In this document: positions 42,933-50,649 of the stretch, piece after piece
Numbering within the stretch: the first letter of the stretch is position 1
Layout: each line of letters starts with the position of its first letter
Made by a program: the position numbers and the translations under genes
The notes under the pieces: model-generated
Databases searched by the model: none
What the model was told of the DNA's origin: nothing
Seen by the model: only the letters and a program-made list of their open reading frames with translations
NCBI RefSeq assembly: GCF_054482525.1
Contig: NZ_CM137006.1
DNA length: 64,000 nucleotides
Strand: one strand, 5' to 3'

Positions 42933-44369
42933 TCAACCTTTCTTAATCATTGCCGAAATTGCGCCACAGTCATGAAACTTATCAAAACCAGTGGTGCCTT
43001 TGATATATTCAGTAACCAGAGTACCAATAATCTTAACCGTTTCTTTGTTCGTTGTGATAAAGCCCAGTGGCATCGTTACAGGCAATATTTCGGGTTGAGA
43101 AATATGATAGATAACGGCAGATAACTCATCCTCAAGATGAAGGATCTCAACATTACCATCTAACAGCCCCTCAACTAGTCCTTTAGCGTACTCATGGAAT
43201 TGCCCAAGTTCATACTTCCACTGTCTGGCAACCCGAGCATCAGCTGCATCCCGGACAGGTACGTACAGCACCGGTTTATACAGCTGCTTATCCTTCGTAG
43301 CCGACTTGCTAAGAAAATTGCTCAGGCTTGAGATAAATCGAATGCTTTTTGACCAGTAGGGATCTGATGGTGCCACCCAGATGAACGGGCTACCTCCATA
43401 ATCAGTTTTATCTCTGATACGCTGATTGAGCGCTGGTGCCAGAGCTTTCTGCAGCTTTTCCCAGTTGTTTTTAGAATAAACCGGACCTAAAAAAGTCGTT
43501 CTGCCTGAGGACGAGTATTCTTCCAGTGCTTGCATATCTTTGATAAACAACGGATTAAGTCGATTCGTTTTAGAGTCAAACAGCTTAAGCGTAAGGTCAT
43601 CGTTAATGGATTGCATGGCCTTAAAAATACTCATGGTATTGTTATGCCGTGATAACCTGGCTATCTCAACAGCCATTAACTCATGAACACATTCCGAACT
43701 ATTTAACTGTTCATAGTCTTCACGCTCGACAGCCTTACCATCGCTATCCATTTTAAATTCCGTTGTTAAACGGAGTGGTATTTGCCGCAGCTTATTAACA
43801 GAATTAACGGTATAGATAGAAGGTTGTTCTTTTCCGACCTGAACCTGCAGGTGAGACAGGTAACCTTTATCCAGGATTTGATTAAACTGGTATTGAAAGT
43901 GCTTCTCAACCAGTTTCTCACTTTGAGAAATGTTGTTGTCATCAACCTTTAATGTTACCCCTCCCCTCCAGTGGTCCTGAAAAGCCTGGTTGCTGAAGCA
44001 ACTAAATGTGGCTAAATCAAAGGATAAGGTACAGCCACTGTCCTGAATAGTTGAAAGATGCGGTATCTCGCCAACCTCTGAAAAATAGCCATTTGATTTG
44101 TCTGTTAAGGCCAGTCTGCCGTCTGAGGAGAGCGTCAATTCGCCACGCTGCACAAGATCGGAAATCGCCTCCTCTGTCTCACGGTGGGTCAGGCCGAAAT
44201 AGGTTGCTATTTGTGCTTTGCTCATCGAAGCTACATGAACAAGTCTCAGCACAAACTCCCGGATAAATGGCAGCCCCTTCTGGGAAACATAGGAAAACTG
44301 AATGTTAAACCTCTGTGCTGGCAGCAGGAAGTCAACCTCATGATAGGTAACTTTGTTATCAGATATCAT
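42933..44369 (-). CDS. Hypothetical 478-aa protein with N-terminal winged-HTH-like region; distal gene of the NERD-kinase-helicase operon
   Basis: ATG at 44369-44367 overlaps the TGA of the upstream giant ORF (ATGA coupling). Residues about 40-90 ([46 protein letters not shown]) look like a wHTH. I see no catalytic motif and no HxK PLD motif. Confidence 0.55.
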
Positions 44370-48992: not shown

Positions 48993-50649
48993 GATCGTAT
49001 CCCTGTCCCCCAACATTCAGCCAAGCCTTCACGAGCCTTCCTTTCGAGATATAGACTTCTTTGTCGACTGTTTCGACCTGAAACTGAAAGCCATCGTCTT
49101 CCGGGTATTGACGAGCGTGATTGATAGCATGTCGGTAAGGGTCAAGCTCAGTATCATCAAATGTTGGAATATCCTTGCCAGCAGGTTCGGCTTGTTTCAG
49201 GGCATCAAAGAATTCTGTTGCAGAAGTGAATTTTGCGGCAACGGCATCCCGTAATACAGATGAATACCAGTGCTGGCTGTTTAGCATGTTGTCCTGTACT
49301 TTCTCCAGACTCTTTGGCGACATGCGCATACCGCTAAATAAGTGCCAGGCGACAAGGCCCAGAGTATGAACATCTTGCTGAAAAGGCGTAAGCTCGCCCT
49401 TATCAAGCATGTCTTTTACGTGGACTGCACCTACGGATAAAAGCTTACGGTAATCGCCAACCGTTCCGGCTGGCTGGTGGTAAGCCGAAATAAAGTTCGA
49501 AAGAGCAACTTCTTTTGAAGGTGAAATCCACAGACTGTGATCGGCGACATCCCTGTGCGCAATTTTCATCTCATGGAGATCACTAAACTTTGCAATGAGC
49601 AGTTTCACCACATTCAAGCGGTCCATATCAGAAAAGTTCTTACCATATTTTCCGATAAACTCATTAAACCGGACATGACCCGGCGGAACTTCGTAGACTT
49701 CGCTATACTCGGCCGTCACCTCGTCTTTCTGAAAACTCGTCAAAGACCTGAGACAGTGGTTATACAGGTCACGATTCTGGTGATTGATGTGCTGTAACAC
49801 TTCGCGCTCACGTGAAACAATCTGAGCTCGTCCTTCCGGGGTATTCGCTTTCGTTCCCGTTATATTTCTAAAATTCCATACTCTGAGTAGCGCTTCGCTG
49901 TTCGTTGATATCTCAGATTTTGCCAGATATTCTCGATACACCTTTTTAGGATGTTCGAAAATCATATCATTAGCTTCATAGCCATTAACTCTCAAGGCTT
50001 TTGGTGCCGTCTGAGGCCCTAGGAACAAATCATCGAAAAGATGGAAATCCTTGTTAAGAACCTTGGTAGCTGGGTGCGGTTTGAAATAGTTATTGAAGCT
50101 CCCGCGATCGGCAAACTTCAGGAAATCTTTTAACGAGATCGTATGGCGCCGTTGTTCCTCCGGCAGCGCGCTGAAATCTGCATTGCCGGTCATCACAACA
50201 AAAAAATGAACAATCGGGATATAGCCTTTGTTCGTAAAACGGTCTACCAGACGCTTGAGTTTTTTGTCCAGCATGAATTTTTTGCTACGAGTCACGCTTA
50301 CTGGCGAGCGCCCCATGTTCTTATCACCTTTAAACCAAGTATCTCCGCGTGCGGTTACAGGCTGATGGTTCCAGTCTTTCAGTTCAACAATGATCACGTT
50401 GCAGTGTGTTACAATAACTAAATCGAATTCCCCCTCTTTTTTTGCCTCAACAAATCGAAAACCTGCATAACCTTTCCAAGGGAACATTTCATTGCCGATA
50501 AAACCATAGCTTTTTAGCTGCTCACTAATTGAACCGCTACGGAAAGGCTTGTCAGGCTTAGATACGTTGACTGAAAAAGCAGCTTTTATTTTCTCGATAG
50601 CCAATACTTCCTGTTCTTGTAAGCCACCATCCCACATTTCTACTTCCAA
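48993..50649 (-). CDS. N-terminal 552-aa portion of the IS629-interrupted giant gene: NERD (PD-(D/E)xK nuclease-like) domain + Hanks-type kinase-like domain + start of second kinase-like domain
   Basis: TTG start at 50649 with AAGGAG 7 nt upstream. NERD-like core GEFDLVIVTHCNVIIVELKDW (aa about 73-93). Kinase-like motifs YLAK (aa about 241-244), HRDVADHSLWI (365-375), SNF in DFG position (384-386), DVHTLGLVAWHLFSG (426-440). The ORF-track product's last 53 aa (LNRPGF...SPPT) are read-through into the IS629 right end, not native. Confidence 0.7.

Follow-up and report, generated by a model that had tools for sequence, protein, structure and literature searches.

A long-form Mokosh type I locus interrupted by an insertion sequence on a CP4-like island near clpA

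Introduction

In a 64,000-nucleotide stretch of contig NZ_CM137006.1 (RefSeq assembly GCF_054482525.1), analyzed here as a whole and called the window, an insertion sequence (IS) separates two minus-strand open reading frames that lie next to a gene for a 478-aa protein. A first-pass annotation, made from the letters alone, joined the two frames into one gene and proposed that its product and the 478-aa partner form an undescribed defense system. Is this pair a new system or a known one, and how would its domains work together in an uninterrupted copy?

Results

Excision of the IS restores a single mkoA gene

The element (Table 1) has a length and ends that fit IS629, its putative name. It enters the gene at codon 548, in the orientation opposite to that of the gene. 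In silico removal of the element together with one copy of GAT gave a single unbroken minus-strand reading frame, with the frame exactly restored, encoding 1656 aa from a TTG at 50649 or 1652 aa from an ATG at 50637; the ATG is the start used by RefSeq and IMG. Over all 1652 residues, the reconstructed product was identical to an annotated intact protein of Escherichia coli EC_J_9 (WP_001333439.1; 100% identity, no gaps), and of the 5426 complete E. coli genomes searched, 327 (about 6%) carried the insertion site uninterrupted. If the two frames were separate genes and the reconstruction an artifact, none of these three results would be expected, and we give that alternative no credence; the first-pass reading of one IS-split gene stands.

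The IS junction of the window had no carrier among the same 5426 complete genomes. Other strains contain independent IS3-family insertions in mkoA, a recurrence that fits a costly or dispensable system. Since the insertion in codon 548 cuts the second kinase domain and parts the NERD domain from the helicase (see below), the window copy is expected to be inactive. Beside the IS, mkoB and a 601- to 605-aa stub carrying NERD and the pseudokinase persist as open reading frames.

Table 1. Window coordinates of the mkoA-mkoB locus and of the element that interrupts it
Feature	Position	Strand	Evidence or remark
mkoB, 478 aa, intact	42933..44369	-	ATGA overlap with mkoA
mkoA 3' part: last two bases of codon 548, residues 549-1652, stop codon 44366-44368	44366..47682	-	
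Upf1-like SF1B helicase core, residues 1061-1652	44369..46144	-	Pfam, PDB sequence matches
Middle region, residues 736-1060	46145..47119	-	AF2 model
Second kinase-like domain, C-terminal portion, residues 549-735	47120..47680	-	Pfam, NCBIfam
Target-site duplication GAT, left-hand copy	47680..47682		Flanks IS
IS3-family insertion sequence, IS629-like, 1310 bp	47683..48992	+	Terminal inverted repeats, transposase ORFs, Rfam
IS3-type transposase orfA	47737-48063	+	Within IS
ALIL frameshift pseudoknot	48018-48134		Within IS; Rfam RF01497, 120 bits
IS3-type transposase orfB	48060-48950	+	Within IS
Target-site duplication GAT, right-hand copy	48993..48995		Flanks IS
mkoA 5' part: residues 1-547 and first base of codon 548 (ATG numbering)	48996..50649	-	Excision product = WP_001333439.1
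First kinase-like domain (pseudokinase), residues about 225-500	49138..49965	-	PADLOC matches, invariant residues
NERD (PD-(D/E)xK) nuclease-related domain, residues about 53-135	50233..50481	-	Pfam PF08378, 2.7e-07
Sigma-70-like promoter match TTGCCC-18-TATAAT, about 110 nt 5' of mkoA start	50762..50791	-	

The pair is the long form of Mokosh type I

The PADLOC profile for MkoA (PDLC03921) matched residues 1-1652 of the reconstructed protein over profile positions 1-1603 of 1607 (E=0, 2212 bits), and that for MkoB (PDLC03923) matched residues 3-472 of the partner over positions 4-452 of 454 (1.9e-151); NCBIfam contains no Mokosh model. In Tables S2 and S8 of Millman et al. (2022), system SG199 from E. 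coli SEC470 (IMG genes 2720391838 and 2720391839) is listed as "Mokosh type I" and marked "v" and "Verified," with a Kinase-Helicase MkoA of 1652 aa and a 478-aa MkoB labeled "HTH," not "HTH-PLD." Cloned with its native promoter, SG199 conferred phage resistance (Millman et al. 2022). The window proteins were 92.5% (MkoA) and 98.2% (MkoB) identical to the 399 visible residues of each SG199 protein. The TUM1886 allele equals SG199 across those visible residues and served as its proxy; against it, identity was 97.5% for MkoA (1611/1652) and 98.5% for MkoB (471/478). The window and SG199 have the same two genes, of the same lengths and with the same ATGA coupling, and a common upstream region with a TOTE-primase pseudogene and a Gp2-like gene. 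They differ by 41 substitutions in MkoA, concentrated at residues 1-200 and 801-900, by 7 in MkoB, and by the IS in the window copy. Because defense by a cloned E. coli allele, 97 to 98% identical to this one, was demonstrated in 2022, the system is a known one.

The sequence features that define Mokosh type I were found at the locus with one exception. A full-length MkoA profile match, an adjacent MkoB on the same strand, a COG1112/Upf1-like helicase, and a serine/threonine-kinase domain are all present; the PLD-family (HKD) nuclease that the text of Millman et al. places in MkoB is not, and MkoB has a predicted PLD-like fold only. Since MkoB lacks HKD and yet this form is listed as verified, membership follows from near-identity to SG199, which is both named and tested, and the textual definition by a PLD nuclease does not suit the long sub-form. 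The pair behaves as a conserved unit: among 45 species-level loci, 39 have all five parts of MkoA directly upstream of an MkoB homolog.

We conclude that the locus is almost certainly an IS-inactivated chromosomal long-form Mokosh type I system (mkoA-mkoB), carried as cargo on a CP4-like island near clpA. The system is already named and experimentally verified, not new, and is detectable with PADLOC and DefenseFinder. The proposal of an undescribed system is therefore withdrawn: PADLOC assigns both proteins to Mokosh type I, and the long form is that of the verified SG199. Assignment of the pieces to a named system by profile searches was the outcome that the proposal itself had listed against novelty, and the Mokosh type I matches are that outcome. 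Its companion claim, that the combination of domains is new, fails as well, as NERD in Mokosh type I was tabulated in a 2023 review (PMC10952713) and the NERD-kinase module is known (PMC12839542). The predicted defense function, in contrast, is upheld by the MkoA and MkoB matches and by SG199.

MkoA joins a NERD-kinase module to an Upf1-like helicase

NERD and the pseudokinase are encoded by the 5' part of mkoA, which runs on into the second kinase through and past K537. In NERD, which Pfam located at residues 57-139, D72, E85, and K87 were invariant across 28 homologs (66-91% identity). The first kinase-like domain was matched in PADLOC by PD-T4-6 (residues 343-440) and PglW (residues 57-446; 4e-27). 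Its catalytic loop reads HRDVADHS, with the catalytic-loop Asn replaced by Ser368, and SNF stands where DFG is expected; in our own reading of the sequence, Arg252 appears to occupy the position of the beta3 Lys. H361, R362, D363, S368, S380, and F382 were invariant in the 28 homologs, so that the noncanonical domain is conserved, not decayed, in keeping with its earlier tentative description as a pseudokinase.

This N-terminal part is also where an alternative identity arises. The first ~400 residues matched the NCBIfam models for MAD6 (1.3e-31) and PglW (5e-24), and PglW and DndF have been described as combining a NERD REase with an inactive pseudokinase and an active S/T/Y kinase (PMC12839542). 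MkoA has this tripartite module in common with PglW (BREX type 2/Pgl), MAD6 (MADS), and a subset of DndF. The locus could accordingly be read, with the PADLOC match to PglW in its favor, as a remnant or variant of PglW or MAD6, or as an Nhi-type nuclease-helicase, rather than as Mokosh. However, the NCBIfam matches cover the N-terminal module alone and fall far below the curated cutoffs (110 versus 460 bits for MAD6; 84 versus 990 bits for PglW), the top PADLOC matches include no model for Nhi, and the full-length match goes to MkoA. In its C-terminal half, PglW has a wHTH triad plus iSTAND, and DndF has a P-loop kinase; these proteins have neither an Upf1-like helicase nor an MkoB, and their methyltransferase or PglZ partners are absent here, with no PglX, PglZ, BrxC, or MADS partner among the surrounding island ORFs. 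We regard these identities as extremely improbable and reject them, given that MkoA and MkoB each match their Mokosh profile over the full length and given the identity to SG199.

The second kinase-like domain has the catalytic loop SHGDIHPGN (H631, G632, D633, N638) and the motif LIDIPDF (D652), and its beta3 Lys, K537, lies across the IS from the catalytic loop. The Pfam Pkinase match on MkoA consists of two stretches, with residues 581-661 (1.8e-10) in this domain, which also gave a weak APH match in Pfam and Bud32 and LanKC kinase matches in NCBIfam. K537, H631, G632, D633, N638, and D652 were invariant in the 28 homologs, in support of the first-pass assignment to an HGD-type kinase. Such invariance is what one would look for if the active second kinase were itself the effector, phosphorylating host or phage proteins and leading to abortive infection in a Stk2-like manner, with the nuclease-like domains secondary. 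Similarity to the PD-T4-6 kinase defense proteins in PADLOC, and the fact that T4 Alt, a protein ADP-ribosyltransferase, aids evasion of a Mokosh type I system, point the same way. Nevertheless, the NERD triad is just as invariant, conservation of the second kinase across 39 loci was below that of NERD, the pseudokinase, and the helicase, and short-form Mokosh type I requires a PLD nuclease according to the text of Millman et al. (2022). We therefore consider a kinase effector quite unlikely.

The middle region is predicted to contain two beta-barrels (about residues 744-835 and 916-1002) linked by helices (AF2 model m2157f1256660). Foldseek of the region against the PDB returned nothing below E=0.04; the second barrel was weakly similar to the 1B barrel of Upf1, IGHMBP2, Dna2, and Setx. 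This is the fastest-evolving part of MkoA, with a mean identity across the 39 loci of 57.6% versus 77.2% for the helicase. In the helicase core, Pfam AAA_11 (1.1e-37) and AAA_12 (5.1e-42) matched residues 1072-1616, and a PDB sequence search gave Upf1/Nam7 as the best match (8e-30), followed by DNA2, IGHMBP2, and Sen1. The Walker A motif GPPGTGKT is at 1090-1097 and the DE of motif II at 1345-1346, and the motif residues were invariant in the 28 homologs. The order of domains given by the first-pass annotation (NERD, two kinase-like domains, Upf1-like helicase) agrees with the Pfam matches and the invariant residues. Upstream of mkoA, the sigma-70-like match is a candidate promoter in a region where the number of such consensus matches is not above chance; it falls within the SG199 fragment that Millman et al. 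cloned.

MkoB has a predicted PLD-like fold without an HKD motif

Read from the equivalent upstream start, the EC_J_9 gene product is 100% identical to that of mkoB, and the 478-aa form is annotated in 266917_2 as WP_000622487.1. MkoB consists of an N-terminal beta-hairpin and wHTH and a C-terminal domain (about residues 240-478) with a predicted PLD-like fold. Foldseek matched the C-terminal domain to F13, PLD, NucT, Nuc, PLD3/4, and Zucchini (E 1e-4 to 1e-2). In sequence, neither HxK(x)4D nor GSxN was present in MkoB across 40 homologs, and Pfam searched at E<=1 on all 40 gave no PLD family and weak wHTH matches only, in line with the first description of a partner with a wHTH N terminus and no catalytic motif. 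NCBIfam gave 0 matches, and a PDB sequence search with the MkoB profile gave nothing meaningful. By hhalign, long-form MkoB found nothing in the single H10407 MkoB sequence and aligned to a 36-member alignment of canonical MkoB over the N-terminal 125 residues only (E=5e-4, probability 31%); as the N terminus alone aligns, sequence comparison does not support PLD kinship of the C-terminal domain.

These data bear on whether the canonical Mokosh logic could hold here, with the PLD-fold domain of MkoB, homodimeric like Nuc or Zucchini, acting as the nuclease despite having no HKD Lys or Asp, and NERD as a backup or regulatory domain. The Foldseek matches place the domain in the PLD superfamily, and the invariant His422 sits on a beta-strand some 56 residues before the C terminus, a position probably equivalent to that in Nuc. 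Mutations in the PLD active site are reported to abolish Mokosh defense by Millman et al. (2022), whose text leaves the mutated system unspecified. However, besides the missing motifs and the short hhalign alignment, SG199 MkoB carries the label "HTH," and noncatalytic PLD folds (TrmB sensor domain, FAM83, F13) are among the top fold matches. A nuclease role for MkoB thus appears unlikely, if less so than a kinase effector.

A working model for the intact system

In the model that we propose for the intact system, MkoA and MkoB would operate as a two-gene unit, probably as a physical complex, a step that is based on their conserved adjacency and translational coupling. The Upf1-like 5'-3' SF1B helicase would then engage phage nucleic acid using ATP; mutations in the ATP site abolish Mokosh defense in Millman et al. 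(2022), the text of which is silent on the Mokosh system concerned. Recognition or regulation may fall to the rapidly evolving pair of beta-barrels and to MkoB, with its wHTH and PLD-like fold. The nuclease that executes the response in the long form would be the N-terminal NERD of MkoA, replacing the HKD nuclease of short-form MkoB. Finally, the pseudokinase/kinase pair may gate or amplify the response by phosphorylation, as has been proposed for PglW and DndF.

As MkoB has a predicted PLD-like fold without HKD and the NERD triad is invariant, NERD is the likeliest nuclease, but we hold the assignment tentatively, at slightly less than an even chance. T-even phages require DNA glucosylation plus Alt to evade a Mokosh type I system, which fits a DNA-directed effector. 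For the Mokosh type I system of CFE331 in the HIDEN-SEQ study, the source does not specify the long or the short form. Against a NERD effector stand the PLD-based definition and the PLD active-site mutants cited above, and the MkoB C-terminal domain, with its fold and invariant His422, could still be catalytic. In the literature, we found no reported mutants of the long-form NERD, kinase, or MkoB, and a search yielded no mechanistic paper on and no solved structure of Mokosh type I; one group reports that its purification was unsuccessful. Taken whole, the identity of the locus together with the proposed mode of working is very probably the best explanation of the data.

The locus is carried on a probable P4/CP4-type island

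Genes for an integrase, AlpA, and a DUF3987/YfjI protein are present in the island (Pfam), the integrase and AlpA matching the Pfam integrase and AlpA families only. This set fits a P4/CP4-type island and agrees with the earlier view of the pair as cargo of such an element. Islands of the P4/CP4-57 type are expected to have a tyrosine integrase with an Arm-DNA-bind_3 domain, AlpA, a primase-like DUF3987/YfjI protein, and a tRNA or tmRNA gene as their integration site. ARAGORN detected no tRNA in the whole window, and the annotation places none next to the integrase; between int and clpA there are only RtT-like repeats and one CRISPR repeat. PADLOC, Pfam, and NCBIfam searches of the other island ORFs identified no further defense gene. 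The six island ORFs searched in PADLOC had no match, and a 605-aa ORF was given no family by any of the three.

Discussion

Short-form Mokosh type I, as in E. coli ETEC H10407 (MkoA, 1215 aa, PDLC03920; MkoB, 602 aa, PDLC03922), likewise has a kinase and an Upf1-like helicase in MkoA (PDLC03920 matches window residues 882-1639, 2e-130), a homologous N-terminal hairpin and wHTH in MkoB (PDLC03922 matches residues 12-248, 1.2e-13), and a site adjacent to an integrase, at ssrA. In contrast to the window proteins, its MkoA, read by eye, begins with the kinase region and has no NERD or pseudokinase, and its MkoB contains two complete HKD motifs, whereas the MkoB of the window shows a single PLD-like fold that lacks HKD. 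The short form is rare in E. coli (about 6/5426 genomes, versus about 330/5426 for the long form). Mokosh type II (MkoC) shares the Upf1-like helicase (PDLC03924 matches residues 1341-1639, 6.6e-36) but joins it in one polypeptide to a C-terminal HKD PLD nuclease and has no kinase, NERD, or MkoB. Outside bacteria, the piRNA pathway of eukaryotes pairs an SF1B Upf1-like helicase, MOV10L1, with a PLD-fold protein, Zucchini/PLD6, and Cury et al. propose an evolutionary link; the HKD site of Zucchini is active, however, and neither a NERD nor a kinase module occurs in the eukaryotic proteins.

These comparisons raise the possibility, which we put forward as speculation that we think rather less likely to be right than wrong, that "Mokosh type I" may combine two systems that differ in mechanism. 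In the long form, a helicase would guide a NERD/kinase effector, with a catalytically dead MkoB as sensor or regulator, and the short form would use a true HKD nuclease. The long form may then be an N-terminal module of the PglW/MAD6/DndF kind fused to an Upf1-like helicase, and its MkoB may have a TrmB-like architecture (wHTH plus PLD fold).

The window locus itself provides a clean, exactly reconstructable example of a defense gene knocked out by an IS. For the long form in general, the double beta-barrel region, which evolves fastest and lies just upstream of the helicase, is a candidate specificity determinant, and the contrast between an MkoB without HKD and an invariant NERD triad in MkoA defines a concrete set of mutants for the mechanism of Mokosh type I. 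If the two forms do differ in mechanism, the long form would merit its own type, and the family would offer a natural case of a nuclease swapped between the two subunits of a defense system.

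Identity of the operon

The first-pass annotation took the minus-strand pair for an undescribed defense system; the profile search that it had called for was run, and both proteins fell to an already named one. PADLOC matched the large protein end to end to MkoA (PDLC03921; E = 0, 2212 bits) and its partner end to end to MkoB (PDLC03923; 1.9e-151). Mokosh was defined by Millman et al. (2022, bioRxiv 10.1101/2022.05.11.491447), in whose hands three Mokosh systems defended E. coli. Their Table S2 gives SG199, from E. coli SEC470, as "Mokosh type I" (flagged v), with a "Kinase-Helicase" MkoA of 1652 aa starting MWDGGLQEQEV and an "HTH" MkoB of 478 aa starting [11 protein letters not shown]; SG199 confers defense, and Table S8 lists the pair as "Type I ... 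Verified."

Over the first 399 residues of each protein, the span covered by the SG199 comparison, the window proteins were 92.5% (MkoA) and 98.2% (MkoB) identical to SG199. As a full-length stand-in, we used the allele of E. coli TUM1886, which shows no difference from SG199 in the first 399 nt of the cloned fragment or in the compared residues of either protein. Window MkoA was 97.5% identical to this allele (1611/1652, no gaps) and MkoB 98.5% (471/478), with every listed catalytic residue the same. We conclude that the window operon is an already known system, both named and tested. The NERD domain (PF08378) is tabulated under Mokosh type I in a 2023 review (PMC10952713), and a NERD REase, inactive pseudokinase, and active kinase form a recurrent module of PglW and some DndF proteins (2026 NAR, PMC12839542), with which the MAD6 and PglW N-terminal HMM matches of MkoA agree.

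TUM1886 was the sole match of ≥99% to the SG199 long-form probe. NZ_CP007594.1, the RefSeq record under the name E. coli SEC470, has the same length as NC_017633.1 (ETEC H10407), and an H10407-type Mokosh probe matched both at the same coordinates; public records may mix up strain labels around SEC470.

An insertion element splits mkoA

The element interrupts mkoA at codon 548. In silico removal of the element and one GAT gave a single open frame, preceded by AAGGAG; its product has 1656 aa if read from TTG 50649 and 1652 aa if read from ATG 50637. Every residue of the 1652-aa product is identical to WP_001333439.1, encoded by the intact gene of E. coli EC_J_9; read from the start in the ATGA overlap, the 478-aa partner likewise shows no difference from its EC_J_9 counterpart (this form is annotated as WP_000622487.1 in strain 266917_2). 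Among 5426 complete E. coli genomes, a 300-bp empty-site probe was uninterrupted in 327, and the IS junction of the window was absent from all. Given the intact EC_J_9 protein and these uninterrupted sites, the reconstruction is not hypothetical, and the earlier reading of two ORFs as one split gene holds. The name IS629 would fit the length and ends of the element. Rfam detected the ALIL frameshift pseudoknot of the IS3 family in it, and thousands of E. coli records contain copies of it under the annotation IS3-family transposase.

The insertion divides the second kinase domain, leaving K537 on one side and the catalytic loop on the other, and parts the NERD domain from the helicase. Because the 5' fragment runs on for 54 codons into the element, a 601-605-aa NERD-pseudokinase stub and an intact mkoB stay open frames. 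An independent IS3-family insertion lies elsewhere in mkoA at locus L003 (E. coli E686, NZ_CP049198.1, 2226-11182), in an arrangement shared by E597, E118, and PEC011 that has a second IS3-family copy just downstream of mkoB. Since these independent insertions differ in position, mkoA has been struck repeatedly by IS elements.

Features of the window and domains of MkoA (residues counted from the ATG start; percentages are mean identities to window MkoA)
Feature	Position	Strand	Evidence or content
mkoA split ORFs	44366-47557 and 48832-50649	-	ORF table; two + strand transposase ORFs between
Insertion element	47683-48992, 1310 bp		Matching terminal inverted repeats
GAT duplications flanking element	47680-47682 and 48993-48995		Sequence
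ALIL pseudoknot	48018-48134		Rfam
NERD nuclease-related domain	residues about 53-135		D72, E85, K87 invariant; 69%
First kinase-like domain (pseudokinase)	residues about 225-500		HRD kept; invariant Ser at catalytic-loop Asn position; SNF for DFG; 73%
Second kinase-like domain	residues about 521-735		K537, HGDxHPxN (631-638), D652 invariant; Bud32/APH-type-like; 63%
Middle region	residues 736-1060		Two beta-barrels in AF2 model; 58%
Upf1-like SF1B helicase	residues 1061-1652		Upf1/Nam7 8e-30, then DNA2, IGHMBP2, Sen1; 77%
Type I restriction-modification operon	13375-22710	+	HsdM 13375-15813, HsdS 15807-17147, HsdR 18899-21994
DarT/DarG	17160-17816 and 17801-18880		Between hsdS and hsdR
YgjP-like metallopeptidase	21994-22710		Follows hsdR
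TOTE-conflict-system primase pseudogene	50714-51100		Frameshifted
IS1 transposase remnant	55247-55684		Between alpA and 605-aa ORF
605-aa ORF	56180-57997	+	Segment ~32% GC
CRISPR repeat	59843-59870		Rfam CRISPR-DR4, 50 bits
AIDA-type autotransporter adhesin	4623-7544	-
IS102 RNA match	7488-7724
sRNAs STnc490 and STnc100	27861-28205	-
Marginal tRNA match	28624-28691	-	Rfam, 30.7 bits

Domains of MkoA and start of MkoB

Searches of Pfam, NCBIfam, and PDB sequences, together with a 28-member alignment (66-91% identity), bore out the motif reading of the first-pass annotation. The noncanonical residues of the first kinase-like domain are themselves conserved in the alignment, which makes it a conserved pseudokinase rather than a kinase in decay. 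In the AF2 model, helices join the two beta-barrels of the middle region; Foldseek gave no match to this region below E=0.04, and the second barrel bore a weak likeness to the 1B barrel of Upf1-family helicases. RefSeq places the MkoB start inconsistently (430 aa in EC_J_9, WP_001513283.1, L001 12001-13293, versus 478 aa in 266917_2, L002 2597-4033). Because the PADLOC profile match extends over residues 3-472 and conservation in the family alignment begins at residue 9, the 478-aa, ATGA-coupled start is right.

Distribution and island context

At 100% identity, the protein cluster comprises 2349 sequences. Homologues that span the full length (about 1650 aa) are spread over Enterobacterales, Vibrio, Aeromonas, Shewanella, and others; for MkoB, homologues number more than 500. 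Among contigs taken at one genome per species, an MkoB relative was encoded at 45 loci, and all five MkoA parts lay immediately upstream in 39 of them. Four of the six exceptions were cut by a contig end or were partial MkoB matches (L016, L017, L047, and L050); L018, a mid-contig locus, gave no match to NERD or the pseudokinase, and the relative at L048 is divergent. Beyond E. coli, the pair is not accompanied by the island integrase, AlpA, DUF3987, Gp2-like gene, or 605-aa ORF of the window; mkoA-mkoB thus behaves as a mobile cassette of two genes.

The primase pseudogene lies immediately upstream of mkoA and is also present in the cloned SG199 fragment; this and the IS1 remnant are island decay. 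The 605-aa ORF, "hypothetical" in RefSeq for other strains, had no Pfam, NCBIfam, or PADLOC match and directly adjoins the island integrase, a spot typical of cargo. Between the integrase and clpA (within 59387-60083) is a single CRISPR repeat; in strain 266917_2, the corresponding stretch carries RtT-like repeats in the RefSeq annotation. The island attachment site was not located, as ARAGORN found no tRNA in the window; the marginal Rfam match, not called by ARAGORN, may represent a partial tRNA at the border of another island. With the restriction-modification operon and DarT/DarG, at least two further defense modules lie in the window, ~20 kb from the Mokosh operon.

Long and short forms compared

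The short form of Mokosh type I (ETEC H10407), also verified, adjoins an integrase at ssrA and has an MkoA of 1215 aa and an MkoB of 602 aa annotated as PLD-like. Both forms share the helicase (PDLC03920 versus window residues 882-1639, 2e-130), a kinase, and the N-terminal wHTH module of MkoB. Profile-profile comparison aligned long- and short-form MkoB only over residues 2-126 versus 1-122 (E=5e-4), in agreement with the PADLOC cross-match of PDLC03922 to window MkoB residues 12-248. Short-form MkoB carries two complete HKD motifs in a 36-member alignment (H368-x-K370...D375...GSxN389 and H554-x-K556...D561...SxN571). In contrast, the HxK(x)4D...GSxN signature was absent from long-form MkoB in an alignment of 40 members, none of which matched PLD Pfam models; window MkoB had no family in a Pfam search.

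The AF2 model of MkoB (40 homologues) has an N-terminal beta-hairpin and wHTH of moderate confidence and a confident C-terminal domain (pLDDT about 90). Foldseek placed the latter in the PLD superfamily at E-values of 1e-4 to 1e-2, with matches to vaccinia F13, the TrmB sugar-binding domain, PLD, NucT, Nuc, PLD3/4, Zucchini, and FAM83. The sole invariant His of this domain is H422, in the sequence YH-x-S. The main rival to NERD as the nuclease of the long form is that this PLD-fold domain still fills that role. Mokosh defense was lost on mutation of the helicase ATP site and the PLD site, the construct not being given in the text (Millman et al. 2022). The credible nuclease site is HKD in MkoB for the short form and NERD in MkoA for the long form, and NERD may be the effector of the latter.

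A literature search for the mechanism or a solved structure of Mokosh type I turned up neither, and purification failed in one group's hands. To fully evade a Mokosh type I of a uropathogenic strain, whose form (long or short) is not stated, T-even phages depend on both glucosylation of their DNA and the Alt ADP-ribosyltransferase. For the long form, we infer that the Upf1-like helicase would engage phage nucleic acid, NERD would be the executing nuclease, the kinase pair would gate the response, and the variable barrel region and MkoB may share in recognition or regulation. The residual point, a long-form MkoB without the HKD motif, bears on the published family definition and not on a new system.
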